This document shows, piece after piece, positions 15,681-32,594 of a DNA stretch of 64,000 nt (positions are counted from its first letter, which is position 1; every line of letters begins with the position of its first letter). The position numbers and the translations under genes are program-made. This DNA is from Patescibacteria group bacterium (lineage in GTDB: Bacteria; Patescibacteriota; Microgenomatia; Levybacterales; UBA12049): contig JBBTVD010000006.1 in NCBI GenBank assembly GCA_038063415.1, positions 221,882-285,881 on the forward strand. The letters are read 5' to 3'. The notes under the pieces are model-generated. The model was not told where the DNA came from and searched no databases. It worked only from the letters and a program-made list of their open reading frames with translations.

Positions 15681-17162
15681 GTGCTAGATAGAAAGACTAA
15701 AAATAAAAAGAAGTGTTTTTTATACTTTTTCCTCTACGCTTTTCTGTTCCTTTTTTTTATTCCTTTTACTATCCCTGTTTATGCGGCAGGAGAAACTTAT
15801 ACATGGGTAAATGGTTCCATTCAACTTAGTGGCGGTGATGTTACAACTCAAAAAACTCTCACTGGTTCAGAAATTGCATCAGGAGGACAAACACAATATG
15901 GACCTGAATTTATGAGGATTAGTCCTGCAGGAGGAGAATGCGATATTAACATTGCTGTACGAGTGCCAACGGGAAATACTGCAACTGGGGTACTGACGGC
16001 CACATCGGGAATAAGTCAACCCAATAATATGGGCTGCAATCAAGATATTGTTAACACCTATAACGGAAAATCAGTCACAATTGGTGGCAATCAAGCAGAA
16101 GGACGAGAAGAAACCGCGGCAGAGAGAATTGTTACCCTGCTCCTCATCTCCCCTGAGACCGATACTGCACCAGCATCCATAACTATTACCGTTAATAATG
16201 TTGTTGACGGGGTTCCTCGTTCTGGATCATTTACCGCAAATAAGGAGATTAAAGAAACTCGCAGTGGTAATGGAATCGATAGTGCCTATTATACTTTTCA
16301 ATATACTATTAGTCCTGGAGAAATGCAGATATGTGCAGATGCCATTATAGAATGTGAAACAGCTACAAAACTTAAATATACTCCCTTATTTATCTCTTTT
16401 GGTCAAACAAAAGAGCAGAGAATGATCAATGTAACAGTTGAAGCAATTATTACTCATTTTATTTCACAGTCTTGCCAATCAAATGGCTTAACAGTTGAAC
16501 TTAAGCAAAACAATGAGGTCAAACAAACCGTCCAAACTGACCCTATAGAAATCACAGCAGATACAGAAAATACAGAATTTGGTGGAGAGGGTGCATTGTC
16601 GGAGACAACCAAATCTCTCAAAGTTACCTTTGAAAATGTCGATCCTGGAACATATCAAGTTTGTATTGCTGGCACAACTGATTGTCAGGGGGTGATACTT
16701 GTAGAGGGGCAATTACCAGCAAATGGACATACGGCAACAGTGCAGACACGAATTGAAAATGGAGCAGATATTTGTGAAGCACCGGGAGGAAGTGTTTTTG
16801 AAAAAAAAGAGAACATAATCCCACCCCCACCACCCTGTGCAGACCTCCGAGATGGTAAATGCTGGGCAGTTGCTACATCTTTCTTCGGTCTTGATGTTGA
16901 GGGTCTCTTTTACACTGACCCCGAAGAACTTATTGTTCAAGTTTTTAGTATTCTCTTGAGTATCTCTGGAGGTCTTTGTCTGCTTATTCTTATTATTGGT
17001 TTCTACCGCGTCATTATCTCTCGTGGCAAACCGGAAGCCCTTAAGGCTGCTCAAGAACAAATCCAAGCTGCTATTGTCGGAGCCCTCTTCCTTACGGCAT
17101 CTTTTCTTATGCTTGAGGTTATTGGTATTGATATTCTCAAAATCCCCGGCTGGACTTTGTAG
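15681..17162 (+). CDS. Secreted, Cys-containing surface protein with an N-terminal signal peptide and a C-terminal two-helix membrane hairpin (VirB2/TrbC-pilin-like topology, speculative)
   Basis: GTG start. Signal peptide ...FIPFTIPVYA|AGE, an extracellular region with several Cys and a PPPPP segment, and a C-terminal LLSISGGLCLLILIIGFYRVIISRGKPEALKAAQEQIQAAIVGALFLTASFLMLEVIGIDIL. Confidence 0.55.
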   Translation: MLDRKTKNKKKCFLYFFLYAFLFLFFIPFTIPVYAAGETYTWVNGSIQLSGGDVTTQKTLTGSEIASGGQTQYGPEFMRISPAGGECDINIAVRVPTGNTATGVLTATSGISQPNNMGCNQDIVNTYNGKSVTIGGNQAEGREETAAERIVTLLLISPETDTAPASITITVNNVVDGVPRSGSFTANKEIKETRSGNGIDSAYYTFQYTISPGEMQICADAIIECETATKLKYTPLFISFGQTKEQRMINVTVEAIITHFISQSCQSNGLTVELKQNNEVKQTVQTDPIEITADTENTEFGGEGALSETTKSLKVTFENVDPGTYQVCIAGTTDCQGVILVEGQLPANGHTATVQTRIENGADICEAPGGSVFEKKENIIPPPPPCADLRDGKCWAVATSFFGLDVEGLFYTDPEELIVQVFSILLSISGGLCLLILIIGFYRVIISRGKPEALKAAQEQIQAAIVGALFLTASFLMLEVIGIDILKIPGWTL

Positions 17163-17517: not shown

Positions 17518-17544
17518 GTTTGCCTTGTGCCTAAAGCGCTTGTC

Positions 17545-17553
17545 TGGTACAAT
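17545..17553 (+). promoter_or_regulatory. Extended -10 element TGGTACAAT 6 nt upstream of the metG ATG; possible leaderless metG transcript
   Basis: TGn-TACAAT at 17545-17553, ATG at 17560. No Shine-Dalgarno sequence in between. Confidence 0.3.
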
Positions 17554-17559
17554 TTGAGC

Positions 17560-18996
17560 ATGGCAAAATTTTATATCACTAATGCTATCCCTTATGTCAA
17601 TGCTAAGCCACATATTGGCCACGCCCTTGAATTTATCCAATCAGATACCGTAGCACGATATCATAAACTTATTGGCGATGACGTAAAGCTTCTCTGTGGT
17701 GGGGATGAAAACGCAATCAAAAATGTGCAAGCTGCAGAAAAAGCAGGTGAACCTGTTCAAGCATTTGTCGATCAAAATACGCAGCTCTTTGCTGATTTAG
17801 CACAAGCCTTAACTATCCATTTTGATGTCTGGCAAAAAGGCAGTAGCACCGACCATTTTACTGCTTCTCAAAAACTATGGGGGCTATGTGCTGACAATGG
17901 AGATATCTATAAAAAGTCCTATACTGGACTCTATTGTGTTGGCTGCGAGCTTTTTTATGAACGGGATGAGTTAAATGAAAACGGTGAATGTTTCGAGCAT
18001 CCTGGCAAAAAACTCGAAGAAGTATCTGAAGAAAACTACTTTTTTAAACTCTCAAAGTACCAACAACAAATTGAAGAGTTAATTAGCTCAGAGCAAATCG
18101 CTATTATCCCTGCATTCCGCAAAAACGAAATGTTGGCATTTCTTAAGCAAGGTCTCAAGGATATCAGTATTTCTCGCTCAAACGAACGAGCAAAAAACTG
18201 GGGGGTGCCAGTGCCAGGAGACAATACCCAACGGATGTATGTTTGGTTTGATGCGCTTAATATTTATCAAAGTGGCATTGGATTCGCGTCAAATGAAGAA
18301 ACGTATAAAAAATGGTGGCCAGCTGATGTCCATATGATCGGCAAAGGTATCTTGCGTTTTCATGCGATCTATTGGCCCGCTTTTTTACTTTCAGCGAAAC
18401 TTGCATTACCCAAAAAAGTCTTTGCTCACGGTTATTTAACCGTCAATGGGCAAAAAATGAGCAAAACTTTGGGCAATGTTGTCGATCCCGTGGACATGCT
18501 TAATAAATACGGCTCAGACGCTATCCGATACTATTTATTAAAAGAAATCTCCCCAACAGGTGATGGAGATTTCTCAGAGGAAAAGCTGAAAGCGGTTTAT
18601 AATGCGGATCTGGCAAATGGTTTAGGAAATGCTGTCTCCAGAATTGCCAAGCTAGCAGAAAAATCTGAGATCGATTTTACAGACACAAAGGCAGCTAAAG
18701 AACCTTATACACAGGAACTAAAAGATGCTTTTGAAGAATTTAGGTTTAACGATGTTTTACAAAACCTTTGGAATGTCCGTCTAAGAGCTATTGATCAGCA
18801 CATTAATCAAGAAAGTCCATGGGTCATAAGGGATAAAGAAAAACTCACAAGAATATTACAAGAAGAAATTGATATGTTAAGAGAGTTCGCTCGACAAATT
18901 GAACCATTTATGCCAGAAACGACAAAAAAAATCCTTGAGCAATTTAAGGGATCAAAAATTACTAGCCAAAAACCACTTTTCCCAAGAATGATATAA
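17560..18996 (+). CDS. metG: Methionyl-tRNA synthetase (core enzyme without the C-terminal tRNA-binding extension)
   Basis: HIGH motif PHIGHA, KMSKS motif KMSKTLGNVVDP, and MetRS-like N-terminal YITNAIPYVNAKPHIGHALEFIQSDTVARY. Start set at MAKFYIT. Confidence 0.85.
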   Translation: MAKFYITNAIPYVNAKPHIGHALEFIQSDTVARYHKLIGDDVKLLCGGDENAIKNVQAAEKAGEPVQAFVDQNTQLFADLAQALTIHFDVWQKGSSTDHFTASQKLWGLCADNGDIYKKSYTGLYCVGCELFYERDELNENGECFEHPGKKLEEVSEENYFFKLSKYQQQIEELISSEQIAIIPAFRKNEMLAFLKQGLKDISISRSNERAKNWGVPVPGDNTQRMYVWFDALNIYQSGIGFASNEETYKKWWPADVHMIGKGILRFHAIYWPAFLLSAKLALPKKVFAHGYLTVNGQKMSKTLGNVVDPVDMLNKYGSDAIRYYLLKEISPTGDGDFSEEKLKAVYNADLANGLGNAVSRIAKLAEKSEIDFTDTKAAKEPYTQELKDAFEEFRFNDVLQNLWNVRLRAIDQHINQESPWVIRDKEKLTRILQEEIDMLREFARQIEPFMPETTKKILEQFKGSKITSQKPLFPRMI

Positions 18997-19012
18997 GTAA
19001 AGATTTCTCACT

Positions 19013-19819
19013 ATGATTGATACGCATTGCCACTTACAATTTCAAGCCTTTGAACAGGACTATGATGCTGTTATCAAACGAGCACGAGAGGCTGGGGTTA
19101 CTACTATCATTAATGCAGGCACACAAGTAAGTTCAAGTAAAAATGGCGTAGTCTTTGCCGAAAAATATCCTGAACTGTATGCTGTGGTAGCTGTTCATCC
19201 CCATCATGCAGACAAAATTGAACCTCATTGGATTACTGAACTGGAGAAACTAACCAAGCATCCAAAAGTGGTCGGGATTGGTGAATGCGGCCTTGACTAC
19301 TTCAGTTATGCGTCAAATGGTATTGTCGATCCCAAAAAGCAAAAAGAGGTCTTTGAAGCTCAAATTGTTCTTGCTCATAAGGCAAAACTTCCCTTACAAA
19401 TTCATAATAGGCATGCTGGCAAAGACGTTCTTGAAATGCTCCGACACCATAAAAACCTATTACAATTGACACCTGGGATGTTCCATTGTTTTGCGGGAGA
19501 CATGGATGTTCTTAAAGGGGCACTCGATCTCGGCTTTGCAATCGGCATTGATGGAAATAGCACCTATAAAGGACTTGCTCCAGGAGAGACAGTCGAGTTA
19601 CGAGACATTATCAAAGCTACACCTCTTGATCGTATTGTTATTGAGACCGATAGTCCCTATCTCACACCTATCCCGCACCGAGGCGAACGGAATGAGCCTG
19701 CATATGCTATAATTACAGCACAATTTATTGCGGACGTGAAACAGACCTCTCTTGAAAAGCTCATAGAACAAACTGACAAAAATGTATATACTATATTTAC
19801 GAAACTTAAAATCTTTTAG
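19013..19819 (+). CDS. tatD: TatD-family metal-dependent DNase/hydrolase
   Basis: MIDTHCHLQF..., conserved His/Asp/Glu pattern; 268 aa. Confidence 0.9.
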   Translation: MIDTHCHLQFQAFEQDYDAVIKRAREAGVTTIINAGTQVSSSKNGVVFAEKYPELYAVVAVHPHHADKIEPHWITELEKLTKHPKVVGIGECGLDYFSYASNGIVDPKKQKEVFEAQIVLAHKAKLPLQIHNRHAGKDVLEMLRHHKNLLQLTPGMFHCFAGDMDVLKGALDLGFAIGIDGNSTYKGLAPGETVELRDIIKATPLDRIVIETDSPYLTPIPHRGERNEPAYAIITAQFIADVKQTSLEKLIEQTDKNVYTIFTKLKIF

Positions 19820-19827
19820 ATTTACTC

Positions 19828-21321
19828 ATGACAAGTTTTTTTAACAAAATCTTTACACGGTATCCGATAAAAACCCGTCGAGCACTTGAGCTACTACCGG
19901 GAGCTCTTGCCTGGACAGTTATTTTGGCACCCGTATGGGGCTCTCTTTTTATCCCAACAGCGCTTGCATACTTCATTCTCTTTTTTGATATTTACTGGCT
20001 ATACAAATCAGTCAAGCTTGTTATAACTAACTACCAGGCATCCCAAAAGATTAAAGAAGCAGAACAGACAGATTGGTATGCCAAGGCCAAGAAATTAGCT
20101 GATGTTGAGAAAGTACATCATGTGCTGGTTATCCTTAACTATAAGGAAAGTGTTGAAAAAATGAGAAAAACAATACAAGTACTTGCTCAGCAAACGTTTC
20201 CCCATAAACAGCTTCATATCGTTCTTGCGATGGAAGAACGAGAAGAAGAAGCAAAAGAACGTGCCAGAATTATTACCCATGAATTTAAAGATGAATTTGG
20301 AAGCATTTTTGCAACCTATCATCCTGATATTGAAGGAGAAGTCAAAGGGAAGTCTTCCAATGAAGCGTACGCCGGGAGAGTTGCGTATAAGAAGCTCTTT
20401 GCAGATGGTCCGTATGACATCAATTTTGCAACGATTTCTTCGATTGATGCTGATTCACTTTTTGATAAAGAATATTTTGCTTATCTTGGTTATGCATTTC
20501 TTAAAGATCCGAAACGACATAATAAATTCTGGCAGTCAGCCAATGTCTACCACAATAATCTCTGGGAAGTGCCTGCTCCGACCCGCATCCTCTCTTTCTT
20601 CGGCAGTTTGTGGAGGACTGCCCTCCTTGTCCAGGGCGATAGACTCATTACGAATGCAACATACTCACTTTCATTCAAACTGCTAAAAGATATTGATTTT
20701 TGGGATGTAGATGTTATTCCTGAAGACTATCGTATTTTCTTTAAAGCGTTCTTTAAGAAAAAAGGTGAGGTATGGGTTGAACCTATTTTTCTGAAGACCT
20801 CAATGGATGCTGCTCAATCAGTGGGATATATCAATAGTCTCAAAAATAAATATACCCAAGAAAGACGCTGGTCGTGGGGTGTATCAGATAATCCCCTTTT
20901 TATTACCTGGTGGTTTACCGTTCCTGGAGTCCCGTTTTTCCGAAAAACAACATTAGTCTACCATGTCCTCCTGGATCACGTTATGTGGCCAACCAATTGG
21001 TTTATTATTACCATTGCAGCCAACATCATGGCGGTCATTAATCCAGTTTATGCCAGGACAGCCTTAGGCTACAGTCTTCCACAGCTCGCAGGTATGATTC
21101 TTAATATCAGTCTGTTTGCACTCCTCGCGATGTTATATCTTGAGTATAAAAATAGACCTGAAAACAAAAAATTACCACTTCGAAGGCGATTACTTTTCCC
21201 TTTTGAATTTTTGCTTATGCCCATTATTGGTTTTTTCTTGTCTGCACTCCCTGCACTTATTTCGCATACACAGCTCATGTTTGGCAAAAGAATGGAGTAC
21301 AAGGTGACAGAAAAGGTGTAA
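19828..21321 (+). CDS. Membrane-embedded GT2-family glycosyltransferase, processive synthase type (DxD and QxxRW motifs)
   Basis: N- and C-terminal TM helices, a cytoplasmic GT-A domain with VLVILNYKE, SIDADS and QERRWSWG (the QxxRW motif of cellulose/chitin-synthase-like enzymes). Confidence 0.7.
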   Translation: MTSFFNKIFTRYPIKTRRALELLPGALAWTVILAPVWGSLFIPTALAYFILFFDIYWLYKSVKLVITNYQASQKIKEAEQTDWYAKAKKLADVEKVHHVLVILNYKESVEKMRKTIQVLAQQTFPHKQLHIVLAMEEREEEAKERARIITHEFKDEFGSIFATYHPDIEGEVKGKSSNEAYAGRVAYKKLFADGPYDINFATISSIDADSLFDKEYFAYLGYAFLKDPKRHNKFWQSANVYHNNLWEVPAPTRILSFFGSLWRTALLVQGDRLITNATYSLSFKLLKDIDFWDVDVIPEDYRIFFKAFFKKKGEVWVEPIFLKTSMDAAQSVGYINSLKNKYTQERRWSWGVSDNPLFITWWFTVPGVPFFRKTTLVYHVLLDHVMWPTNWFIITIAANIMAVINPVYARTALGYSLPQLAGMILNISLFALLAMLYLEYKNRPENKKLPLRRRLLFPFEFLLMPIIGFFLSALPALISHTQLMFGKRMEYKVTEKV

Positions 21322-21346
21322 CTTTCCTTATGGTTGGTCAATCAAC

Positions 21347-22837
21347 ATGAAAAACATTATACGTTTTATCGATCGGATCGAACATAGTAAGATTTTCTGG
21401 ACACTTCTTGGGATAAGTGTCCTCTTTTTCCTCCTCAGGCTTCCTTCGTTAATCGAACCTCATTGGTACGGAGACGAAGGTATTTATCAAGTAATTGGGA
21501 TGAAGTTACATCAAGGGAGTTTACTGTATGCCGATATTTGGGACAATAAACCACCCCTTTTATATCTTGTCTATGCATTCTTCAATGGAGAACAACACCA
21601 GGTTCGCCTCTTTTCACTTTTGATTGGGCTACTCACAACAATTTCTTTTTTCTTTCTTTCCAAAGCTCTTTTTCGTTCTTTTGGTGCAAGTGTACTTAGT
21701 ACAAGCATCTTTTGTCTTCTGTTGGCAACTCCTACCCTCGAAGGGAATATTGCCAATGCTGAAAACTTTATGCTTCTTCCAACGATTCTTTCAGCATTAC
21801 TTATTTACCAAGCAGCATTGACAACAACCAGGCACAGCAAAAAATATGGATTACTGTTTGCAGGAGTATTACTTGGCATTTCATTTCTTTTTAAAGCAGT
21901 GGCAATTTTTGACCTTGCCGCATTTTTACTTTTCTTTACTCTCTCTACAATGTCCAAAAAACACCCTTTTAAAAAAATGCTCCATTCATTGCTGTTCTTA
22001 GTGGGTGGATTTCTCATTCCATTTACGATAACGCTTCTCTTCTTTGCTGGACATAATGCACTGCCAGCATTCTTTGTCTCAGTATTTAGAGATACGGCAA
22101 CGTATGTTACCGGACAAGCAAATGATTTTCTCTTCCCCAATGGACTTCTTATTGCTAAAATGGTACTGCTGCTTGGAGCACTAGCAATTATCCTATGGAA
22201 ACGAAGTTATTTTACACAAAAGACACTTTTTATTAGCGTATGGACTGTGTTTGCCTTGTTTAGTACCTTTTTTTCCCAACTTCCCTATACACATTATCTT
22301 CTGCTTCTATTACCAAGTTTTTGTCTACTTGTAGGCCTCATCTTAACTCTGTCAACAAAAAAATCTATGATTTTTCTTTGGAGTGGCACGCTGTTGTTGG
22401 GAGCTTTTGTAACACAGCAAATTCCGATCTATCAACCGATAAAAACGATTGCCTATTACGACAATGCGATGCAATTTGTCACCGCAGGAAAATCAGTTGG
22501 TGCGTATCAGAGCTTCTTTGACTTACGAACGAAGCGCGATTATGAAATCGCCTCATTTATCAAATATCATATTCCTTCTGATAAATCACTTTTTATCTGG
22601 GGAGATTCTCCGCAAGTTTATGTACTCGCTGATAGATTGCCTGAGCAAAAATATATAGTAGCATATCATATTTTAGGTAAAGAAGACCGCGTACATGAAA
22701 TACAAAAGCAGCTAAAAGAACAATCGCCAGACTATATTGTTATTTTAGAAGAAGCTCCCTTCTTGCCATTTCAGTCATCTTTCTATAAAGTGAAATATTT
22801 ATTACAAGGAGCAACCGTCTATGAAAAAACTTTTTAA
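21347..22837 (+). CDS. GT-C-fold glycosyltransferase (ArnT/PMT-like, GT39/GT83 family), which uses a polyprenyl-phosphate-sugar donor
   Basis: About 11 TM helices, the first extracytoplasmic loop HWYGDEGIYQVIGMKL...DNKPPLLYLVYAFF (the DE motif region of the ArnT/PMT family) and a C-terminal soluble domain. Confidence 0.7.
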   Translation: MKNIIRFIDRIEHSKIFWTLLGISVLFFLLRLPSLIEPHWYGDEGIYQVIGMKLHQGSLLYADIWDNKPPLLYLVYAFFNGEQHQVRLFSLLIGLLTTISFFFLSKALFRSFGASVLSTSIFCLLLATPTLEGNIANAENFMLLPTILSALLIYQAALTTTRHSKKYGLLFAGVLLGISFLFKAVAIFDLAAFLLFFTLSTMSKKHPFKKMLHSLLFLVGGFLIPFTITLLFFAGHNALPAFFVSVFRDTATYVTGQANDFLFPNGLLIAKMVLLLGALAIILWKRSYFTQKTLFISVWTVFALFSTFFSQLPYTHYLLLLLPSFCLLVGLILTLSTKKSMIFLWSGTLLLGAFVTQQIPIYQPIKTIAYYDNAMQFVTAGKSVGAYQSFFDLRTKRDYEIASFIKYHIPSDKSLFIWGDSPQVYVLADRLPEQKYIVAYHILGKEDRVHEIQKQLKEQSPDYIVILEEAPFLPFQSSFYKVKYLLQGATVYEKTF

Positions 22838-23174
22838 ACATGTCTGGGATGACAAGATTATTAAATGGGGAATGGGTAGTGCAGCTATCGTCTTCTTCTT
22901 TTCCCTTATTATTCTTGCTATTTTTTATTGGAATCTTCCACCATACCTTCCTGTCTATAACCAAATGCCGTGGGGAGAAGAACGTCTTGCCACCAAGTAT
23001 GAGATTATTCTTCCACAACTCATTGCGTTTTCCTTCTTTGTTCTAAATTTCTCTTTATCAAGAAAATTGTATGACAAAATGCCGTTAATCTCCCGCATGC
23101 TTAGTATTACTACCTTACTGACAATGCTGCTTTCCTTTGTCTTTTTGGTTCGAACATTATTATTATTGTTGTAA
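22821..23174 (+). CDS. Small membrane protein, hypothetical; overlaps the end of the GT-C gene
   Basis: 117 aa with 3 predicted TM helices. No motif. Confidence 0.35.
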   Translation: MKKLFKHVWDDKIIKWGMGSAAIVFFFSLIILAIFYWNLPPYLPVYNQMPWGEERLATKYEIILPQLIAFSFFVLNFSLSRKLYDKMPLISRMLSITTLLTMLLSFVFLVRTLLLLL

Positions 23175-24262
23175 TGAATATACCATTTTATATTATTTTT
23201 TTACCGATTGTGGCTGCTCTTATTATCACCGCAATCGCCACACCTCTTAGTCTTAGGTGGATTAAAAAAGCAGGACTTGTTGATGACCCGCAAAAGCACA
23301 AGCATCCAGCAATCATTCATAAAAGAATTGTCCCAAGAGGGGGTGGATTACCTCTTTTTATCGGCACCTGGTTTACCATTCCATTTTTTCTTCCGATAAC
23401 ACCACAAATTATTGCCATATTTACTGCTTGTACCCTACTCTTGATTGTTGGGCTTATTGACGACAAGCAAAATAGTCGCGCAAAAGATTTCTCACCATAT
23501 AGTCGTTTTATTGTTACCGTTCTTAGCGCTATTATTGTTGTGGCAAGCGGCATTAGCATCCAATTTATTACCAATCCTTTTGGAGAAGGGGTGCTTGCGT
23601 TAAACACTATCCTTATACCCTTCTTTTTCTTTGCACTTCCCCTTTCTGATATTTTTTCTGTTTTGTGGCTTATCTGGATTATGAACATGATCAACTGGAG
23701 TAAAGGAGTAGACGGACAGATGCCTGGAATCGTTGCAATATCTGCCATTGTCATCGGGTTATTAAGCCTTCGAATCAATGGTGGAATACCACTAGCCCTT
23801 GATGCAACAATTTCCTTTATTATTGCGGGAAGTGCTATTGGGTTTTTATTTTATAACTTTTATCCCGCAAAGATATTTCCCGGTTGGAGTGCAACTTCGC
23901 TCTATCTTCTTTTAGGAGTTGTCTCTATTTTATCAAGCGCAAAATTAGCAACCGCTATTCTGGTCATGGGAGTACCAGCAGTCGATGCTCTTTTTACTAT
24001 TATAAGACGGCTACTCAATAAACGTTCTCCATTCCAAGGAGACAGAAAGCATTTACATCATCTCTTACTCTCACTAGGCTATGGACAGAGAAAAATTGCA
24101 TTGTTTTATTGGCTACTCTCTGCTATATTAGGGATACTTGCCCTCCAGCTTGAGAATAAAAGCAAATTTTTTGCTATTATTATGGTAGTAGTAGTTACGG
24201 TTGGCGCATTGCTTTTCTTGCATGCGGTAACAAAACATAAGGATGAAAAAAAAGCTTCTTAA
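23174..24262 (+). CDS. Polyprenyl-phosphate N-acetylhexosamine-1-phosphate transferase (GT4 MraY/WecA/TagO family)
   Basis: Polytopic protein with LVDDPQKHKHPAIIHKRIVPRGGGLPL (the WecA/TagO N-terminal cytoplasmic-loop motif) and later MNMINWSKGVDG. Confidence 0.8.
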   Translation: MNIPFYIIFLPIVAALIITAIATPLSLRWIKKAGLVDDPQKHKHPAIIHKRIVPRGGGLPLFIGTWFTIPFFLPITPQIIAIFTACTLLLIVGLIDDKQNSRAKDFSPYSRFIVTVLSAIIVVASGISIQFITNPFGEGVLALNTILIPFFFFALPLSDIFSVLWLIWIMNMINWSKGVDGQMPGIVAISAIVIGLLSLRINGGIPLALDATISFIIAGSAIGFLFYNFYPAKIFPGWSATSLYLLLGVVSILSSAKLATAILVMGVPAVDALFTIIRRLLNKRSPFQGDRKHLHHLLLSLGYGQRKIALFYWLLSAILGILALQLENKSKFFAIIMVVVVTVGALLFLHAVTKHKDEKKAS

Positions 24263-25184
24263 TATTCTTCGGCTGCTTCGGCCGCGGCAATGGAGTAAAA
24301 ATATTGCCGTTTTCGCCGCCATTACCTTTAGTGGAAGACTCTTTGAACTCGATCTTTTTCTCACTGTTTGTTATGCCATGCTTATTTTTTGTGCAATTTC
24401 AAGCGCAATTTATGTCATTAATGATTTATTTGATATTAAAAAAGACAAGCTCCATCCTTTTAAACGATTTAGACCTCTTGCCCATGGTGATGTCTCCAAA
24501 TCTGAGGCAATAGTCATAGCGACGATACTTATTGTTGTTGGATTAACAGCAAGTTATTTCATCAACCTCTCATTTTTCTTTATTGCACTTATTTACTTGT
24601 TTCTTCAATTGTCTTATACGTTATCGTTCAAACACATTACGGTTCTTGACGTCCTTGCGCTTGCCGGTGGATATATTCTTCGTGTCTATGCAGGAGAAGT
24701 TGTCAGCGAATTTCATATTTCTGTTTGGCTTCTCTTGACTACTATTTCTCTTTCTCTTTTTTTGGTAGTTGCAAAAAGAAGATCAGAGCTAACCCTTATC
24801 TCTCAATACACGAGTGCACAAATTGCCGCAACACGAAAAACCTTGTCACACTATTCAGAAAGATTACTTGATGTGTATGCGGCGATGTTTGCAACATCAA
24901 CATTTCTTTCCTACGCGCTTTTTACGTTTCTTGTCGATCCAAAGAATACCAATCCTGGCAGCGGAGAATTGATAAACACTCTCTTTCAAATTAATCTCGA
25001 TAAGAAATGGCTTATGTTGACCATTGTTCCGGTTGTCTATGGACTGATGCGATATTTACAAGATGTCTATGAAAAACATGAGGGAGAGAGTCCTGAACGA
25101 GTTGTTCTTTCAGATAAACCTCTCCTTGCAGCAGTTATCCTGTGGGGAGTACTGGTTGTGACAATTATTTACTTTGTTAACTAG
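24243..25184 (+). CDS. UbiA-family decaprenyl-phosphate phosphoribosyltransferase-like enzyme (DPPR synthase, Rv3806c-like)
   Basis: LRPRQWSKNIAVFAA and YVINDLFDIKKDKLHPFKRFRPLAHG are very close to the mycobacterial DPPR synthase motifs IRPRQWVKN and YLVNDVRDVEADREHPTKRFRPIAAG. Confidence 0.8.
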   Translation: MKKKLLNILRLLRPRQWSKNIAVFAAITFSGRLFELDLFLTVCYAMLIFCAISSAIYVINDLFDIKKDKLHPFKRFRPLAHGDVSKSEAIVIATILIVVGLTASYFINLSFFFIALIYLFLQLSYTLSFKHITVLDVLALAGGYILRVYAGEVVSEFHISVWLLLTTISLSLFLVVAKRRSELTLISQYTSAQIAATRKTLSHYSERLLDVYAAMFATSTFLSYALFTFLVDPKNTNPGSGELINTLFQINLDKKWLMLTIVPVVYGLMRYLQDVYEKHEGESPERVVLSDKPLLAAVILWGVLVVTIIYFVN

Positions 25185-25197: not shown

Positions 25198-26055
25198 TTA
25201 TTCCTCTGCTTTCTTTGCGTATTGACTACTAATCCAGCCTTCTACACCATCTGGCAAGGTGATCTTGAACCAACCAGCTTTTTCTTCAACCAGATCATAT
25301 GATTCACCAGGAGTAACTTGACCAATTTCTGAAGCTCCAACAGAGCTTTCTGCTCGAACTCGGAGAAACCCAGTAGGAGTATCGAGAATAAGTATCTTTG
25401 TCACGGCAACTGCCGGCGATGGACTAAGCGTAGCCGAAGGAGAAGCAGATCTTGATGCCTCTTGCGGTGCTTCAAGACTCGTACTCAGATATGCTGCAAC
25501 GGTTAGCTTATACCCCAATGGCGTTCTGATACGAATGGTCTTTTCTTTATATCCATCTTTTTTTACCTTCAAGACATGATCTGATTCTGTTGGATCCTTG
25601 TGGAGGACTGGTGTGTCACCAATGGAACTATTATCAAGAAGCACCATCGACCCTCGAGGGAAAGAGACGACAAGGAGTTCCGCCTTTGTTTTATCAGAAA
25701 GAGCAGTTAGAGAAATCACACTTCCTTCAGAAAGAGAGTCTTCGCCAAACTTCCGATCGACAACGGTTAATACTCCAGAGGCAATAGTTATCTTCTCTTG
25801 GAACTCTTGCATTTTTTTATCAAGTGGTTCAAGGCGAATCGTATAATCTCCCGCTTGGAGCATATCGGTTGCATCACATTCACAGAGAGGGGTTTGTCCA
25901 ATATAAGTATCGTCTAAATACACTTTACTCTCAGGACTAGAGGTTACTTGTAATGCTCCTTTTTGCCCCTGTCCTTTATACACATACTGTAAAACAAAGA
26001 AAATAAGTGACGCAAGGATAAGTGAAGGGATAATAATAAAGAACAATTTTCTCAT
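25198..26055 (-). CDS. Membrane-anchored protein with two PEGA domains and a C-terminal SH3b-like domain
   Basis: N-terminal TM, PEGA-like segments (VTSSPESKVYLDDTYIGQTP; VVSFPRGSMVLLDNSSIGDTP) and a C-terminal GWFKITLPDGVEGWISSQY (SH3b-like). Confidence 0.6.
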   Translation of the reverse strand: MRKLFFIIIPSLILASLIFFVLQYVYKGQGQKGALQVTSSPESKVYLDDTYIGQTPLCECDATDMLQAGDYTIRLEPLDKKMQEFQEKITIASGVLTVVDRKFGEDSLSEGSVISLTALSDKTKAELLVVSFPRGSMVLLDNSSIGDTPVLHKDPTESDHVLKVKKDGYKEKTIRIRTPLGYKLTVAAYLSTSLEAPQEASRSASPSATLSPSPAVAVTKILILDTPTGFLRVRAESSVGASEIGQVTPGESYDLVEEKAGWFKITLPDGVEGWISSQYAKKAEE

Positions 26056-26115: not shown

Positions 26116-28407
26116 TTATCTAGTTACTAAGCCAAATTCGAGAACTTCTCCACCACAATAGGTGGTAATAAGATCACAAGATTCTTGCAAAGATTTACGT
26201 ACCTGCTCTGGCGTTATCTCATCAATGCCATCTACATTAAGATAGATATTTTTTGTTTGCTCTGTTACCGCTGTTCTCTGGGAATCTCGGAAATTGAAAT
26301 CAATATTGTATCCTCCTTGCTGATCAAAATAGGAAAGTTCTGTTTCCTTGTACTTTGTAGATTCAGTATCGCCAAGTAATAAAATCTCCTCCCCAGCTTT
26401 TGCAAAGCGAAGTTCAGTCGGGAACTGCAGAGTATCTAGATCAAATGCGCCAATCGAGATACGATGCCTCATTACAACTAGATTATATGCATCTACACAA
26501 GTATTGATTGTATATAAATCTTTTCCTTGAGCAACCCGTCGAAGTAACGCTTCAGGGCTGGGTCTGCGTGAATGCCAATCAATCCCCATTGCTTTATAGA
26601 GTTTTCGATAACTTAAGACTTCAAGATATTCTCCAATTTTTTCTGTCGTTAGTCCTTTTAAAGAATCCAACAATTTTTCCTTCTCTTTTTCAAGTTCTGG
26701 GTTTGTTTTACTAATAGTAACTCCCTTAATGACGGCAATACCAATGGAGATTGAAGGATGTTTTTCTTTGACGTTTTTATCTATTGAAAAAATGTTTGAG
26801 GAAATACCAGTCATTCTGGCAAGCGGAGCGCGTCCAGAATCTTTATTTTCGATTCTGGAGTCCTCGCTTTCGCTCGTCCCCAGAATGACGTCATTAAACC
26901 TCTTTTGTACAAAATCTTTCTCAAGAGAGAGGATAAACCAAGCAGCTTTTGGTCCATGGTCTTTGCCAATGAGGGACTGGTAGATTGCTGAAAAAGTTTG
27001 TTTACCATTGAGTCCCAAGGGCTTCCCTAATTCATAAATCTGTGTCTGTAAATCATCAGCATTCCACTCTTTATCTAACTCTGCAACTATTTTTTGTAAA
27101 AGTTCTTTTTGTTCAGCAGAGAGATGTTTTGCTCCCTCTGGCGTATCTTTCTGAACCAAGAATTTTGCAGAATCTGGCGCATACTTTTCTATCCACACTC
27201 TCGCATATTTCGCCCATTCCTCAAGTCCTTCCTCTTTAATTTTGTCTTGCATGTTCGGCATCTGCACCCACTGTGCAAGTACAGAGAAACGAATACTTGG
27301 CGGTTTGACTATATCACCAATTTGTGAGAGTTCAAAAGTACGAGCAAGATCTTCATCCGTTTTATCAAAATATGCTGCTGCTGCTTTTTGATACGCATCA
27401 AATAAATTTGGAATAGTATCTTTCTCCGTTGGATCAAAGTTTGTTTGCTGTTTTATATCCATTTTTACAATCAAAAAACGAACTAACTCTGCCGGTAAAA
27501 TAGAAAGCATATCTCCAGCTGAAAAACCTCTTCCTTTTGAAGAAGACATTTTTTTCCCACCAATCAACATAAATTCATAACTAACAGGATATGGCACAGG
27601 ATAATCAAGCACTTTCTTAGCAATAAGCGAGGTGAGGTCATGCGACCCACCCTTACTCATATGATCCTTTCCAGCACCCTCTACGGTCACACCAATCGCT
27701 TGCCATTTGCAAGCCCATTCTATTTTCCACGGCATTTTTCCTTTAATACCGTTTTCATCACTAAATGGAGAAGTTTTTCCTTCATGTCCACACCCTTTTG
27801 TCCATTCAGTGGCATCAACTGGGCAACGGTAGTGAACAAATTCTCCATCCCAGTCATAGACGCGAGTTGTTGAAACCTTGCCACAGGATTCACAGTAAAC
27901 CTGGAAAGGATACCAGTCAGCAGGCATTTCTTTTTTATACATTTGTTGATAAATACTTCGTATTTCGGAAGCGTTATCCAATGCTTTTTTAACCCCAGTA
28001 TTCATTTTGCCACTCGTATATAAGTCTTTCGTCCAGATGATTTCAGGATATGATCCGATTTGGTTAAAAGCTTTTTTGAATTCTAATGCATAATACTCAG
28101 CATAATCTTTGTAACCCTCAAGAGGTGAAGGAACTCTAAAAAGTGGCATACCAAGATACTTCTCAAATTTCTCTCGAGGGAGATAAGAAGGTATATCATC
28201 CATTGGGTCATGGTTTTCAAATACATAGGTATACTTTGCCGCTACACCTTGATCTTTTAATGCTCGGTAAACCAAATCATGGAAAACCACCCCAAAAAGT
28301 GAACCTACATGAATACGACCCGATGGTGTCTTCATATCGTCAACCCAATAAGGTGTATATTTACCTGAATCAATAATTTCTTTTGCTACTTTATCTGCCC
28401 AGAACAT
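26116..28407 (-). CDS. lysK: Class I lysyl-tRNA synthetase fused to a ~250-aa C-terminal extension carrying a B3/4 (PheT-type) domain
   Basis: The N-terminal 510 aa align to archaeal-type LysRS-I (MFWADKVAKEII..., TPSGRIHVGS, EGAGKDH, KMSSSKG, AWFILSLEKDFVQKRF). The C-terminal part contains NTCVDAYNLVVMRHRISIGAFDLDTLQ, matching the B3/4 core (vDitNyv...g.P.HaFDld). Confidence 0.8.
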   Translation of the reverse strand: MFWADKVAKEIIDSGKYTPYWVDDMKTPSGRIHVGSLFGVVFHDLVYRALKDQGVAAKYTYVFENHDPMDDIPSYLPREKFEKYLGMPLFRVPSPLEGYKDYAEYYALEFKKAFNQIGSYPEIIWTKDLYTSGKMNTGVKKALDNASEIRSIYQQMYKKEMPADWYPFQVYCESCGKVSTTRVYDWDGEFVHYRCPVDATEWTKGCGHEGKTSPFSDENGIKGKMPWKIEWACKWQAIGVTVEGAGKDHMSKGGSHDLTSLIAKKVLDYPVPYPVSYEFMLIGGKKMSSSKGRGFSAGDMLSILPAELVRFLIVKMDIKQQTNFDPTEKDTIPNLFDAYQKAAAAYFDKTDEDLARTFELSQIGDIVKPPSIRFSVLAQWVQMPNMQDKIKEEGLEEWAKYARVWIEKYAPDSAKFLVQKDTPEGAKHLSAEQKELLQKIVAELDKEWNADDLQTQIYELGKPLGLNGKQTFSAIYQSLIGKDHGPKAAWFILSLEKDFVQKRFNDVILGTSESEDSRIENKDSGRAPLARMTGISSNIFSIDKNVKEKHPSISIGIAVIKGVTISKTNPELEKEKEKLLDSLKGLTTEKIGEYLEVLSYRKLYKAMGIDWHSRRPSPEALLRRVAQGKDLYTINTCVDAYNLVVMRHRISIGAFDLDTLQFPTELRFAKAGEEILLLGDTESTKYKETELSYFDQQGGYNIDFNFRDSQRTAVTEQTKNIYLNVDGIDEITPEQVRKSLQESCDLITTYCGGEVLEFGLVTR

Positions 28408-28420: not shown

Positions 28421-29527
28421 TCATGCGATATAGCCTTTTTTCACCAGTAACTCTGCTGCCAGTATCGCTCCTCCAGCAGCGCCACGAATGGTATTGTGAG
28501 AAAGCGCAATAAACGAATAATCAAAATGTGTGTCCTCTCGAAGTCTCCCCATGGTAATCCCCATCCCATTTCCATAATCACGATCAAGCTTCGTTTGTGG
28601 TCTATTCTCTTCTGCAAAATACTTAATAAGTTTTGTGGGGGAAGAAGGCAAGTCAAGAGAAACGAGTGCATGGTTTTTATTAAAATTTTCTATCGCTTGC
28701 AGTAATTGCTCTTTGGTTGGTCTTTTGGCAAAAGAGACAGAGACACTTGCCATATGCCCATCTGCAACTGGTACTCGAATACAAGTTGCTGAAATCGATG
28801 GTTGGATTGCAGAAACTAATACATCTTCTTTAATTGTTCCCCAAATCTTCATGGGCTCTTTTTCTGACTTTTCTTCTTCTCCTCCGATAAGTGGGATCAC
28901 GTTATCAATCATTTCTGGCCAAGTTTCAAAATTCTTTCCCGCACCTGAAATTGCTTGGAGACTGGTCACCTGAACTTGTTTTGGTTGAAACTCTCGTAAT
29001 GCTGTCAAAATAATACTGTACGATTGGATCGAGCAGTTAGGTTTGACTGCAATAAAACCCTTTTTCCATCCTCTCTTTTTTTGCTGTACGGGGATAAGGT
29101 CTGCATGATGAGCATTTACTTCGGGTATAAACATTGGGATATCCTCAGTCCAACGATGTGCTGAGTTATTGGAGACAACTGGGACACCACGTGCCGCATA
29201 GGATTCTTCAATCTTTTGAATAGTCTCTTTATCAAGATCAAGCGCACAAAAAACAAAATCAACTGATTCTGTAATTTTCTCTTTATCATCAACTACCGAT
29301 TGTACAATAAGGTTACCTAAGCTGGTCGGAATTTTTTCTTGCATTTTCCAAGTCCCACTCACTGCTTCTCCATACTCTTTTCCAGCAGATCGAGGAGAAG
29401 CAGCAACAACAACCACTTTAAACCATGGATGATTCTCAAGAAGGGCAATGAATCGCTGTCCGACCATCCCAGTTGCGCCTAAGATACCTACTTTATATTT
29501 TTTTCTTTTCATAGTTTTTATTGTCAT
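28421..29527 (-). CDS. asd: Aspartate-semialdehyde dehydrogenase
   Basis: KVGILGATGMVGQRF NAD(P)-binding start, catalytic Cys region and the C-terminal dimerisation domain; 368 aa. Confidence 0.9.
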   Translation of the reverse strand: MTIKTMKRKKYKVGILGATGMVGQRFIALLENHPWFKVVVVAASPRSAGKEYGEAVSGTWKMQEKIPTSLGNLIVQSVVDDKEKITESVDFVFCALDLDKETIQKIEESYAARGVPVVSNNSAHRWTEDIPMFIPEVNAHHADLIPVQQKKRGWKKGFIAVKPNCSIQSYSIILTALREFQPKQVQVTSLQAISGAGKNFETWPEMIDNVIPLIGGEEEKSEKEPMKIWGTIKEDVLVSAIQPSISATCIRVPVADGHMASVSVSFAKRPTKEQLLQAIENFNKNHALVSLDLPSSPTKLIKYFAEENRPQTKLDRDYGNGMGITMGRLREDTHFDYSFIALSHNTIRGAAGGAILAAELLVKKGYIA

Positions 29528-29530
29528 CTT

Positions 29531-29601
29531 TCGTCATTCTGGCCGAGTCCAGAATCCGTTTCTATTAAGATCCTGGATGCGCTGCGGCTCACCAGGATGA
29601 C
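29531..29601. repeat. Structured palindromic intergenic repeat, copy 2 of 3, in the dapA-asd spacer
   Basis: cgtcattctggccgagtccagaatc...gatcctggatgcgctgcggctcaccaggatgacg. Same element as 11606-11676. Confidence 0.6.
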
Positions 29602-29625
29602 GGTTAGGTAAGGCAATTTATACTT

Positions 29626-30510: not shown

Positions 30511-31241
30511 ACGATGAGCTCCTCAAACACATCATCAAAAGAATAAAAGCCTTTTTTGTTATGAATAAATCTGGCCGCAACAAGCGCACCCTCAGCAAAG
30601 CCACGTCCACCGCGAGATTGATGAGTAAGAGAAATCTCATCAGCAATACTATCAAAGGTCACTTCATGTCTGCCACGATTATGCCCTCCTCTGAGGGAAG
30701 CAAAATGTAACTCTTCTTTTTTGATTGGCCGATCAATGGCATCGGTCTGGACAACTTTTTTTGCCGGAAAGCTCTCAAGAATGATACTCGTTAGTTTTTT
30801 TGCAGTTCCACTTGGACTATCTTTTTTAGCCGTGTGATGGACCTCAAATCCATACACATCATATGCTTCAAACTTCTGTGCTAGTTTACTGGCATAACCT
30901 GTTAGTTTATAGAAAATGTTAACCCCAATGGAAAAATTTGGACCATAGACAAATGCACCATTTTCTTTTTTTATCATATCTTTTACTTGATCCAAGTTGT
31001 CATACCAACCAGTTGTCCCGATAACCAATGGTTTTTTAAGTTCGAGAATTTTTGGAATGTTTTCAAGAACAATAGCTGCTGAGGTAAAATCTATCACCAC
31101 ATCTGCTTCTTGGATACCTATGATGTCCAGCTCTTTTTGCTCACCATACGAAACAGATACGATTTTATCCGTTGTTGACTGCTCAACAATACTTGCAATT
31201 TCACGTCCAACTTTACCAAATCCAACAAGTGCGATATTCAT
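30507..31241 (-). CDS. dapB: 4-hydroxy-tetrahydrodipicolinate reductase
   Basis: MNIALVGFGKVGREI Rossmann start and the DapB C-terminal domain (HHTAKKDSPSGTA); 244 aa. Confidence 0.9.
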   Translation of the reverse strand: MNIALVGFGKVGREIASIVEQSTTDKIVSVSYGEQKELDIIGIQEADVVIDFTSAAIVLENIPKILELKKPLVIGTTGWYDNLDQVKDMIKKENGAFVYGPNFSIGVNIFYKLTGYASKLAQKFEAYDVYGFEVHHTAKKDSPSGTAKKLTSIILESFPAKKVVQTDAIDRPIKKEELHFASLRGGHNRGRHEVTFDSIADEISLTHQSRGGRGFAEGALVAARFIHNKKGFYSFDDVFEELIV

Positions 31242-32578: not shown

Positions 32579-32594
32579 ACAAGTGCTCCTTTCA

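Follow-up and report, generated by a model that had tools for sequence, protein, structure and literature searches.

On balance, we read a cluster of five genes as an envelope-glycan assembly line organized around a lipid-linked pentofuranose donor, with a glycan primed by a polyprenyl-phosphate N-acetylhexosamine-1-phosphate transferase (PNPT) as the acceptor. The donor is most likely a lipid-linked ribose, which would be used outside the cell on a cell-envelope glycan or a surface protein. The cluster lies in a 64-kb stretch of DNA (hereafter the window) from a groundwater MAG of Candidatus Levybacteria (Patescibacteria, a candidate-phyla-radiation bacterium), and the function of the cluster as a whole is predicted here from comparison of its sequences. 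The pathway is of a known kind, in a phylum for which it had no earlier description, and several of its standard parts are missing.

Donor synthase

The last gene of the cluster (24243..25184, plus strand) encodes a 313-aa protein of the UbiA superfamily (Pfam UbiA, 77 bits), regarded in the preliminary description as a homologue of decaprenyl-phosphate phosphoribosyltransferase, that is, a polyprenyl-phosphate 5-phosphoribosyltransferase (PPPR/DPPR synthase). Grouping with menaquinone/ubiquinone prenyltransferases had been named beforehand as an outcome that would refute the proposal. The assignment was borne out, as DPPR-synthase models gave the protein 236, 220 and 167 bits, with the NCBIfam decaprenyl-phosphate phosphoribosyltransferase equivalogs NF008977 at 235.8 (cutoff 234) and NF008978 at 219.9 (cutoff 207), whereas the models for heme-o, ubiquinone, menaquinone, chlorophyll and GGGP enzymes gave at most 59 bits. 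Searching PDB sequences revealed a match to Rv3806c (8j8j) at E = 2.3e-38, compared with E = 8.5e-8 for DGGGP synthase; the identity to Rv3806c was 34% across 276 positions. The motifs RPRQWSKN and NDLFDIKKDKLHPFKRFRPLA, quoted earlier for this protein, were both found in its translation. Furthermore, all 11 PRPP/Mg-binding residues of Rv3806c were present: R13, K19, Y57, N60, D64, K74, R77, Q122, Y125, K130 and Y144 correspond to R22, K28, Y70, N73, D77, K87, R90, Q135, Y138, K143 and Y157 of Rv3806c, respectively (PMC10994848), and were invariant in 70 orthologues, except that position 122 was Q or H (S in one). The phosphoribose-binding residues of Rv3806c are absent from the rest of the UbiA superfamily (PMC10994848); those specific for phosphoribose, K19, Y57, Q122 and Y144, were kept in the Levybacteria protein. 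Judged by its sequence, the protein is a polyprenyl-phosphate phosphoribosyltransferase and not a quinone prenyltransferase, and the step predicted for it, transfer of 5-phosphoribose from PRPP to polyprenyl phosphate at the cytoplasmic face to give polyprenyl-P-ribofuranose-5-P, is well supported. The notion of an ordinary aromatic prenyltransferase of quinone, heme or lipid synthesis, which would make the cluster unrelated to pentoses and which has membership in the Pfam UbiA family in its favor, is effectively refuted by the model scores, the Rv3806c match and the retention of the phosphoribose-specific residues.

Gene organization and the GT2 synthase

The five plus-strand ORFs described at 19828-25184 were recovered with exactly these coordinates. 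The UbiA gene is preceded by genes for a GT2 with a cellulose/hyaluronan-synthase-like fold (module A; 19828..21321, 497 aa), a GT-C of the ArnT/PMT type (21347..22837, 496 aa), an orphan basic membrane protein, sm117 (22821..23174, 117 aa), and a WecA-like PNPT (23174..24262, 362 aa), and is followed on the minus strand by a gene for a membrane-anchored PEGA-PEGA-SH3 protein (25198..26055; PEGA and SH3_3 domains) with a Ser/Thr/Pro-rich linker. In the window, the GT2 and GT-C genes do not overlap, unlike the other four genes, which overlap by 17 nt (GT-C/sm117), 1 nt (sm117/PNPT) and 20 nt (PNPT/UbiA); the ORFs of the first of these pairs overlapped in 99% of the loci, and those of the last in 68 of 68. 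Synteny in relatives had been set beforehand as a test of the proposal, and the gene order was conserved in 67 of 68 informative loci, each from a different species genome, as well as in distant lineages with 38-57% GT2 identity, so that the five-gene arrangement is far beyond chance. It was also noticed that the cluster is modular, with sm117, PNPT, UbiA and PEGA-SH3 being constant and GT-C and GT2 variably present. The GT-C gene was missing from six clusters (L045, L113, L115-L117 and L124), and in L135 sm117, PNPT and UbiA had neither GT-C nor GT2 adjoining; these absences indicate that the link between GT-C and UbiA is not obligatory at the locus level. Thus, the idea of one cluster holds for the conserved order but not for an indivisible unit, in view of these losses and of the behavior of the GT2 gene described below.

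Pfam, NCBIfam and PDB sequence searches with the window GT2 itself yielded no matches, and its orthologues barely exceeded the Glyco_trans_2_3 cutoff (29-30 bits vs 27). In this protein, two transmembrane helices at the N terminus are followed by a GT-A domain and then by further transmembrane and interface helices at the C terminus. The D, DxD, ED and QxxRW motifs (QERRW at residues 344-348, as previously noted) are invariant, and a C-terminal YKVTxK is also present; the structural model, of moderate confidence (pLDDT 75), had a TM score of about 0.45 to hyaluronan synthase. The predicted fold and the motifs match those of processive membrane synthases and not those of lipid-sugar synthases of the GtrB/ArnC type. 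Of the earlier wording "processive GT2 synthase", the GT2 identity is confirmed by fold and motifs, and processivity is predicted from these same two features. HAS/BcsA/PgaC-type synthases and WbbF of Salmonella O:54, which acts with WecA, are likewise membrane-integrated GT2 enzymes with D, DxD, ED and QxxRW, and the O:54 system (PMC2841628) resembles the present one in that its synthase is co-encoded with a WecA-like initiator; unlike them, the Levybacteria GT2 could be placed by sequence in no characterised synthase family.

Lone relatives of the GT2 (29-42% identity) occurred in five other contexts, in one of them directly 3′ of a GH18 gene, and unrelated insertions of about 4 kb were located exactly between GT2 and GT-C in two loci (L019 and L056). 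These results suggest that the GT2 may be functionally independent. It could accordingly be an autonomous exopolymer synthase (e.g. of a beta-glucan or a chitin-like polymer), leaving a system of GT-C, sm117, PNPT and UbiA only; the lack of overlap between the GT2 and GT-C genes points in the same direction, and a lipid primer is usually dispensable for synthases of this fold. We regard this as a real possibility, though the less probable one, and prefer to keep the GT2 as a part of the assembly line.

Proposed glycan initiation, transfer and acceptor

The 362-aa protein had been assigned to the WecA/MraY family, and this was upheld by a Glycos_transf_4 match of 78.3 bits (cutoff 27, E 8e-22) and by a BLASTP alignment with E. 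coli WecA (25% identity, E 5e-19) in which SPFxxDRxH[LI]HH was aligned, although its scores with the equivalog models for WecA (81 bits), archaeal MraY (64) and MraY (44) were each below the cutoff. In an alignment of 70 PNPT sequences, D96, N174, G178/G181, D290, H293 and L294 were invariant or nearly so, and H295 was present in 69. The PNPT is therefore likely the initiator of a polyprenyl-PP-linked glycan. As the invariant gene coupling suggests, the acceptor of the pentofuranose would be a glycan primed by this enzyme as polyprenyl-PP-HexNAc. In Levybacteria, the GT2 probably synthesizes and exports a polymer that either extends this glycan or occurs alongside it.

The GT-C protein matched PMT_2 (38.7 bits vs a cutoff of 26.1) and PMT (29.1 bits). 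A fold search with its AlphaFold model (pLDDT 91) gave ArnT as the top PDB match (5f15, a structure bound to undecaprenyl phosphate; E 1.4e-7, TM 0.58), followed by AglB/STT3, DPY19 and Pmt4, and the protein carries a C-terminal extracytoplasmic alpha/beta domain. Invariant in 72 orthologues were E37, D43, E44, D66, K68, P69, P70, E132, N137, E139, K183, D189 and H316, including the acidic and KPPL motifs. At the family level, these data support an ArnT/PMT-type enzyme that would use a polyprenyl-phosphate-sugar donor at the extracytoplasmic side of the membrane and pass the pentofuranose to an acceptor there.

The neighboring PEGA-SH3 protein could be the acceptor or serve as a wall anchor. 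Its gene was present in 65 of the 69 loci reaching at least 4.2 kb past GT2, as well as in the distant clusters L093, L094 and L097 and in variant clusters, and the median of the maximum S+T+P content per 25 aa was 0.52 in its linker, compared with 0.32 in neighboring proteins. By the same chemistry, the PMT-like GT-C might O-glycosylate Ser/Thr of a protein with pentofuranose, either in this linker or in pilin-like proteins. Such a role would be consistent with the match to both PMT and PMT_2, with the Pmt4 structures among the fold matches, with the PEGA-SH3 gene being the most constant neighbor and its linker variable in sequence, and with a T4SS_pilin-like protein encoded upstream of the cluster; a parallel exists in TfpW, which arabinosylates the Pseudomonas aeruginosa pilin (bioRxiv 10.1101/2020.04.19.049825). 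However, a protein acceptor leaves both the constant translational coupling of PNPT to UbiA and the role of the GT2 unexplained, and S/T/P-rich linkers are common among surface proteins. We consider it rather unlikely, and the PNPT-primed glycan is retained as the acceptor.

The small protein sm117 is predicted to span the membrane three times, and its outer loop is conserved (LPPxxPxxNQxPWGxxRL), with D11, P44, W51, G52, N76 and R92 being invariant. No similarity to Pfam, PDB, ArnE or PgaD was detected, and a search of 5.8 billion proteins yielded no more than 402 relatives, of which the best 120 were nearly all 117 aa (110-146) and included no fusions. With hhalign, an orthologue was still recognisable in the distant cluster L094 (probability 97.5%). 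This orphan may serve as an accessory protein, a hub or a subunit of a flippase. In the streptococcal group A carbohydrate side-chain system (GacO, GacI, GacJ and GacL; bioRxiv 10.1101/180810), which similarly combines a WecA-like PNPT primer, a lipid-sugar synthase and a GT-C decorating a polymer outside the membrane, its counterpart in the cast is GacJ (DUF2304), a 113-aa activator with three transmembrane segments; sm117, however, had no DUF2304 match. The donor synthase also differs, being a GtrB-type GT2 making GlcNAc-P-Und in group A streptococci and a UbiA-type phosphoribosyltransferase in Levybacteria, where the GT2 has a cellulose-synthase-like fold.

Sugar identity and comparison with known pentofuranose systems

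The logic of a PPPR synthase, a flippase and a GT-C has been demonstrated experimentally in other bacteria, namely with the three-component pentofuranose glycosylation system ORF15-ORF14-ORF12 of Citrobacter youngae O1/O2 (Kelly et al., PNAS 2024, PMC11127046), and this lends support to the earlier suggestion that a polyprenyl-P-pentose feeds the GT-C for decoration of the envelope or of a protein. The Levybacteria cluster is a variant of such systems. In both, a UbiA-type polyprenyl-phosphate phosphoribosyl synthase (34% identical to Rv3806c in Levybacteria and 31% in ORF15) is located beside an ArnT-like GT-C, and the lack of an epimerase, as seen in the Levybacteria cluster, stands for Ribf in that study. 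Unlike the Citrobacter system, the Levybacteria cluster has no fused HAD domain or other phosphatase, has sm117 in the position of the MATE flippase, has a GT-C that matches PMT_2, and has a PNPT translationally coupled to the synthase together with an adjoining synthase-type GT2. No phosphatase (PAP2, HAD) and no recognised flippase (MATE, GtrA/SMR, Wzx) were found in the cluster, window or flanks, and consequently two parts of the published system are unaccounted for. A phosphatase would presumably remove the 5-phosphate, after which the lipid-linked ribofuranose would cross to the outer face, with sm117 perhaps assisting the transfer.

In the published systems, the sugar is decided by the epimerase, and no epimerase means Ribf (PMC11127046). 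The preliminary statement that the window has no DprE1/DprE2 genes agrees with our scan of its ORFs (except about a dozen short ones of 85-200 aa, mostly after 55 kb), in which no DprE1/DprE2-like gene was found and the sole FAD_binding_4 protein was MurB. Likewise, no epimerase was found among the recurrent flank families and cluster insertions examined at 80 related genome loci (flanks of ±8 kb). Therefore, ribofuranose is the default sugar, and the donor would remain in this form in the absence of a cluster-linked epimerase. Should an epimerase be encoded elsewhere, the donor could be arabinofuranose or xylofuranose; the search covered these flanks and 64 kb of a genome of roughly 1 Mb, and mycobacterial dprE1/E2 do not adjoin ubiA. 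On the other hand, every listed candidate system with a Xylf- or Araf-containing glycan encodes an ORF13 or DprE1/E2 homologue in its modification system (PMC11127046), which, with the negative scans, makes this unlikely, and lipid-linked ribofuranose is kept as the donor.

The mycobacterial decaprenyl-P-arabinose/arabinan pathway (Rv3806c, Rv3807c, DprE1/E2, Rv3789, Emb/Aft and a WecA-primed linker) begins with the same type of enzyme, with the PRPP-binding residues all kept in Levybacteria, and follows the same logic as our proposal, in that a WecA-type enzyme provides the primer, the pentofuranose donor is lipid-linked and GT-C enzymes transfer the sugar extracytoplasmically. The likeness drawn previously holds for the UbiA step but not beyond it, since no DprE1/E2 were found in the ORFs scanned and the cluster has no Emb/Aft-type GT-C, EmbA/EmbB appearing in the fold search of the GT-C with E 0.3-0.9 only. 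The D-Araf glycosylation system of P. aeruginosa group IV pilin (PsPA7_6245-6249 plus TfpW/TfpX) also brings together a homologue of DPPR synthase, a GT-C and a small, basic protein with three transmembrane segments; the latter (6247), a proposed hub or flippase (bioRxiv 10.1101/2020.04.19.049825), belongs to the GtrA family, while no family could be detected for sm117. In addition, DprE1/E2 and a homologue of Rv3807c are part of the Pseudomonas system but missing from the Levybacteria cluster, and the Pseudomonas acceptor is pilin, with no linked PNPT or GT2.

Finally, the GT-C might be an oligosaccharyltransferase or ligase that transfers the PNPT-primed, PP-linked glycan en bloc, the UbiA product being used by another enzyme. 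In the fold search, the scores of the AglB and STT3 oligosaccharyltransferases came close to that of ArnT, and a PNPT is present in every cluster; nevertheless, we hold this to be quite improbable, as the sequence family is PMT_2 and not STT3, and the protein has DE and KPPL motifs, which are typical of enzymes using polyprenyl-monophosphate sugars. Moreover, a UbiA gene and a PMT_2 GT-C gene were found close to each other in another, unrelated context (L126), an independent recurrence of this gene pair.

Gene order and conservation of the cluster

Five ORFs were located on the plus strand at 19828-25184, as the preliminary description had placed them, and the motifs that it quoted were all present in the translations. 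They encode a GT2 glycosyltransferase (19828-21321), a GT-C glycosyltransferase (21347-22837), a protein of 117 aa (22821-23174), a WecA/MraY-family transferase (PNPT, 23174-24262) and a UbiA-superfamily protein (24243-25184). The GT2 gene begins 8 nt after TatD and ends 25 nt before the GT-C gene, and the subsequent ORFs have operon-like overlaps of 17 nt (GT-C/117-aa), 1 nt (117-aa/PNPT) and 20 nt (PNPT/UbiA). Scanning of the region from 17 to 26.5 kb for promoters and terminators gave nothing above the shuffled expectation. The window has a GC content of about 40%, gave no matches in tRNA and Rfam scans, and includes genes for a class I LysRS and T4SS_pilin-like proteins. Its GT2 protein matched with 100% identity a protein that NCBI lists under a "Patescibacteria group bacterium" MAG and was also found on Hainich groundwater contigs, and the nearest genome relatives of this protein carry the labels Candidatus Levybacteria or Levyibacteriota.

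Scanning one genome per species revealed 468 genomes with a GT2 relative, and synteny was counted in the best 80 of these. The order TatD, GT2, GT-C, 117-aa, PNPT, UbiA and, on the opposite strand, a PEGA-SH3 gene was essentially universal in these 80; the five genes were in order in 67 of the 69 loci having enough downstream sequence and in 67 of the 68 informative genomes, in line with the synteny on which the preliminary description had made its pathway depend. The synteny is deep, since the entire cluster was kept at GT2 identities of only 57%, 42% and 38% (loci L093, L094 and L097, respectively), and the PNPT and UbiA ORFs overlapped in 68 of 68 loci. GT2 identity was 64-80% across the 80 species, compared with 42-69% for the adjacent MetRS, and the cluster is among the most conserved non-housekeeping loci of the lineage. 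One locus, L045, was an exception in being without GT-C; the genes in its extra DNA are those of a PsbP-like protein and of an AAA ATPase. The other apparent exception, L038, was rejected as an assembly chimera; this public MAG contig, labelled Actinomycetota, switches from AT-rich Levybacteria DNA to GC-rich DNA at about position 9290, inside the 117-aa gene. An apparent loss of UbiA in L094 was likewise a gene-calling artefact, as tblastn recovered the full-length gene. Two loci (L019 and L056) had unrelated 4-kb insertions exactly between GT2 and GT-C, which were rejected as accessory glycan genes because they contained toxin-antitoxin-like genes and a histidine operon.

Variants of the cluster were found by a metagenome scan seeded with UbiA. 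One lineage (L113, L115-117 and L124) had GT2, 117-aa, PNPT and UbiA without GT-C; in locus L104, GT2 was missing and PMT_2 was present as a tandem pair of genes, and in L135 an AlaRS gene was directly 5′ of 117-aa, PNPT, UbiA and PEGA. Sequence reaching at least 3.9 kb upstream of PNPT was available for 25 metagenome loci; 22 of these had GT2 and 19 had GT-C, with 17 having both genes and one having neither. Because GT2 and GT-C come and go among loci, the constant unit consists of the 117-aa, PNPT, UbiA and PEGA-SH3 genes. The last of these (25198-26055, minus strand) encodes a membrane-anchored PEGA-PEGA-SH3 protein and was the most constant neighbour of PNPT/UbiA across all cluster variants; its linker varied in sequence among orthologues and was constant in its Ser/Thr/Pro richness. 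More distant UbiA homologues (35-40% identity) were found in other contexts, one of them beside a Wzy_C ligase gene. Another was in L126, where a stretch at 6572-11780 carries BacA (undecaprenyl-PP phosphatase), a cyclase, a 38%-identical UbiA, DUF362 and a 599-aa PMT_2 GT-C, and may represent a second, independent pentofuranose system.

Activities predicted for the encoded proteins

In Pfam, the UbiA protein (313 aa) matched the UbiA superfamily only, with no additional domain. It scored above the cutoffs of two NCBIfam equivalogs for decaprenyl-phosphate phosphoribosyltransferase (NF008977, 235.8 vs 234; NF008978, 219.9 vs 207), and reached at most 59 bits on prenyltransferase models (heme o, ubiquinone, menaquinone, chlorophyll and GGGP). 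The closest solved structure was that of Rv3806c, the Mycobacterium tuberculosis enzyme (8j8j; E = 2.3e-38, residues 7-305, 34% identity), compared with 8.5e-8 for DGGGP synthase in PDB. In Rv3806c, R22, N73, D77, K87, R90, Y138 and K143 contact Mg/pyrophosphate, and K28, Y70, Q135 and Y157 the phosphoribose, the latter set not being conserved across the wider UbiA superfamily (PMC10994848). Alignment revealed that all 11 ligand residues are identical in the UbiA protein (R13, K19, Y57, N60, D64, K74, R77, Q122, Y125, K130 and Y144), and 10 of them were invariant among 70 orthologues, Q122 being Q, H or S. At the level of sequence and structure, the protein therefore belongs to the polyprenyl-phosphate phosphoribosyltransferase (PPPR synthase) class with an intact active site, and is predicted to convert PRPP and polyprenyl-P to polyprenyl-P-ribose-5-P. 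The equivalog scores and the Rv3806c match thus bear out the homology to DPPR synthase proposed in the preliminary description and place the protein apart from the quinone prenyltransferases.

The PNPT matched Glycos_transf_4 (PF00953) with 78.3 bits (cutoff 27, 8e-22), and kept the signature motifs DD, NxxNxxxGxDG and HxHH, which align with those of Escherichia coli WecA. BLASTP gave 25% identity to the latter (E 5e-19), with the SPFxxDRxH[LI]HH segment aligned. WecA was also the top-scoring curated model, though scores were below the equivalog cutoffs both for WecA (TIGR02380, 81 vs 326 bits) and for MraY (TIGR00445, 44 vs 192). Judged by these matches, the PNPT is an initiating phosphoglycosyl transferase of the WecA-like kind, with unproven specificity for the sugar.

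The GT-C protein scored above the Pfam cutoffs for PMT_2 (PF13231, 38.7 vs 26.1) and PMT (PF02366, 29.1 vs 22.7), and a sequence-level search of PDB gave no relative. AlphaFold modelling with 41 homologues gave a structure (pLDDT 91, pTM 0.91) whose top PDB fold match was ArnT in complex with undecaprenyl phosphate (E 1.4e-7, TM 0.58), followed by AglB/STT3 oligosaccharyltransferases, DPY19 and Pmt4. EmbA/EmbB matched the model with E values of only 0.3-0.9, and Arabinose_trans was not matched in the Pfam scan. The first outer loop contains EPxWYGDEG, in which D43 and E44 were invariant in 72 orthologues, as were the motifs DNKPPL and NAEN; D43/E44 and DNKPPL are presumably catalytic, as judged from what is known of the family. 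The protein is thus ArnT/PMT-like and not Emb/Aft-like.

For the GT2 protein, no sequence matches were obtained in Pfam, NCBIfam or PDB, and its class was resolved only via orthologues, structure prediction and fold search. Orthologues narrowly passed Glyco_trans_2_3 (29-30 bits vs cutoff 27), which the window protein did not match. Foldseek searching with the model (pLDDT 75) gave hyaluronan synthases and BcsA as top matches, and comparison with the lipid-sugar synthases GtrB, DPMS and ArnC gave scores of 12-13. With hhalign, the DxD, ED and QxxRW motifs aligned to PgaC and BcsA, and nothing was aligned to ArnC. Residues invariant in 80 orthologues were D167, GK174-175, D207xD209, E299-D300 and Q344xxRW348. 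The extreme C-terminus, RxEYKVTxK, was also invariant, and its YKVTxK tail resembles in sequence the FxVTxK motif of E. coli BcsA (FNVTAK at residue 617). In BcsA, FxVTxK is a gating-loop motif on the cytoplasmic side. These results support a cellulose/hyaluronan-synthase-like GT2; the preliminary description had called it a processive synthase, of which the synthase-like fold stands and processivity would follow by inference.

Stand-alone GT2 relatives (29-42% identity) were also found elsewhere, one after a GH18 gene and one after MetRS. The former is a 40%-identical homologue in L089 (2209-5047; also in L090), a contig labelled Chloroflexota, and lies immediately 3′ of the GH18 (chitinase-family) gene; this adjacency is a possible hint that the product of this GT2 family contains GlcNAc. 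The MetRS-(TatD)-GT2 adjacency of the window (17527-21321) was kept in L096, where the remaining cluster was absent.

The 117-aa protein is basic, with three predicted transmembrane segments and a conserved loop, LPPxxPxxNQxPWGxxRL, predicted to be outside. It could not be placed in a family by Pfam at E <= 10, by a PDB profile search or by hhalign against E. coli ArnE and PgaD. Profile searching of 5.8 billion proteins revealed only 402 relatives; the best 120 of these were nearly all 117 aa long and unnamed, and included no Rosetta-stone fusion. Small proteins with three transmembrane segments are known in related pathways, namely GacJ/Rv3632 (DUF2304), a partner that activates polyprenyl-P-sugar synthase, and the GtrA-like PsPA7_6247/Rv3789, a proposed hub or flippase; membership of the 117-aa protein in either family was not found.

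Proposed pathway and comparison with known systems

Pfam scanning of the window took in ORFs down to about 100 aa, with about a dozen shorter ones, mostly after 55 kb, outside its scope. DprE1/DprE2 were found neither in these ORFs, consistent with the absence from the window reported in the preliminary description, nor in the cluster insertions or the genes that recur in the flanks of the 80 loci, and no other sugar epimerase was detected in the scanned window ORFs. A PAP2 or HAD phosphatase was likewise absent from the scanned window ORFs and the recurrent flank genes, and no MATE, GtrA, SMR or Wzx flippase was matched in the former. The genes recurring in these flanks encode chaperones, Ham1 and aminoacyl-tRNA synthetases, together with an inositol-monophosphatase-family protein in seven loci and an EamA transporter in four.

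In experiments, Kelly et al. (2024, PMC11127046) showed undecaprenyl-P-Ribf to be formed from PRPP by a UbiA-type synthase; the donor is exported by a flippase, an ArnT-like GT-C (GT136) adds alpha-Ribf to the finished glycan, and epimerases, where present, turn the donor into Xylf or Araf. By analogy, the Levybacteria locus fits the logic of these three-component systems, in that genes for a PPPR synthase and a GT-C lie in one overlapping string and the two synthases are alike in identity to Rv3806c (34% for the Levybacteria protein, 31% for that of Kelly et al.). It differs from the system of PMC11127046 in that 1) no 5′-phosphatase was found, either as a fused HAD PRP domain or as a PAP2 Rv3807c-type gene, 2) an orphan small protein takes the place of the MATE or SMR flippase, 3) PNPT is always coupled to the synthase, and 4) a synthase-type GT2 usually adjoins. 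The logic of PNPT, pentose donor and GT-C recalls mycobacterial arabinogalactan assembly and streptococcal GacO/I/J/L, and the pairing of a WecA with a GT2 synthase of the integral type is reminiscent of the synthase-dependent O:54 pathway (PMC2841628). Of the mycobacterial DPA/arabinan pathway, only the UbiA step was matched; the DprE1/E2 pair and an Emb/Aft arabinosyltransferase were not encountered.

Because no epimerase was found in the DNA seen, the lipid-linked donor would probably be ribofuranose. It would be dephosphorylated and flipped, the orphan 117-aa protein being the sole candidate, and consumed as a pentofuranose donor by the GT-C, with the PNPT product possibly serving as the primer of the acceptor and the GT2 contributing the polymer. 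As far as sequence analysis reaches, these results support the interpretation in the preliminary description, namely that a polyprenyl-P-pentose decorates an envelope polymer or a glycoprotein. The PEGA-SH3 protein could be the acceptor, in which case protein O-glycosylation would be the outcome, or it could be a wall anchor.

A route lacking dephosphorylation was also considered, because none of the loci examined had a phosphatase linked to the cluster. The 117-aa protein, PNPT, PPPR synthase and PEGA-SH3 protein would then form a wall-polymer pathway of a new kind, in which polyprenyl-P-ribose-5-phosphate is kept phosphorylated and phosphoribosyl is transferred or polymerised onto a GlcNAc-PP-polyprenyl primer; the product would be a protein modification or else an anionic ribose-phosphate glycan resembling teichoic acid. 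We consider such a pathway very improbable, and know of no teichoic acid pathway described in this phylum.

With a dephosphorylated ribofuranose donor, the prediction is an envelope polymer or glycoprotein that bears ribofuranose and derives from PRPP via a lipid carrier. The cluster would carry the pentofuranose three-component paradigm, defined only recently, into a new phylum, and offers naturally minimal variants in which a fused phosphatase is lacking, the small subunit is an orphan and PNPT is an obligatory partner. Levybacteria and other cells of the candidate phyla radiation live as episymbionts or are ultra-small, and attachment to a host presumably takes place through their surface; to our knowledge, nothing is known experimentally of envelope glycans in Levybacteria, and very little for the radiation generally.

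Other genes in the window

Upstream of the cluster, a 493-aa secreted protein (15681-17162, plus strand) terminates in a T4SS_pilin-like transmembrane domain that scored just below the Pfam cutoff (25.4 bits), and such proteins recur upstream of MetRS in related loci. Downstream, all on the minus strand, are a class I LysRS with a C-terminal B3_4 domain (763 aa, 26116-28407), a near-complete diaminopimelate/lysine string (asd, dapA, dapB, lysC, lysA, aminotransferase, dapD and dapE; 28421-37030), the completeness of which is unusual for a CPR genome, and a carbon-metabolism block (38989-46603). LysRS homologues recur at the same position in many related loci, two of which (L001 and L004) were confirmed to encode a protein of about 750 aa combining tRNA-synt_1f and B3_4. 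The carbon-metabolism block encodes a 930-aa phosphoketolase with a fused CoA_binding_2 domain and an AMP-binding enzyme resembling acetyl-CoA synthetase. It also encodes a pair of the ATP-citrate-lyase-like or citryl-CoA type (citrate-synthase and CoA-ligase domains, 643 aa), the start of which is overlapped by a 411-aa ORF (40790-42025).
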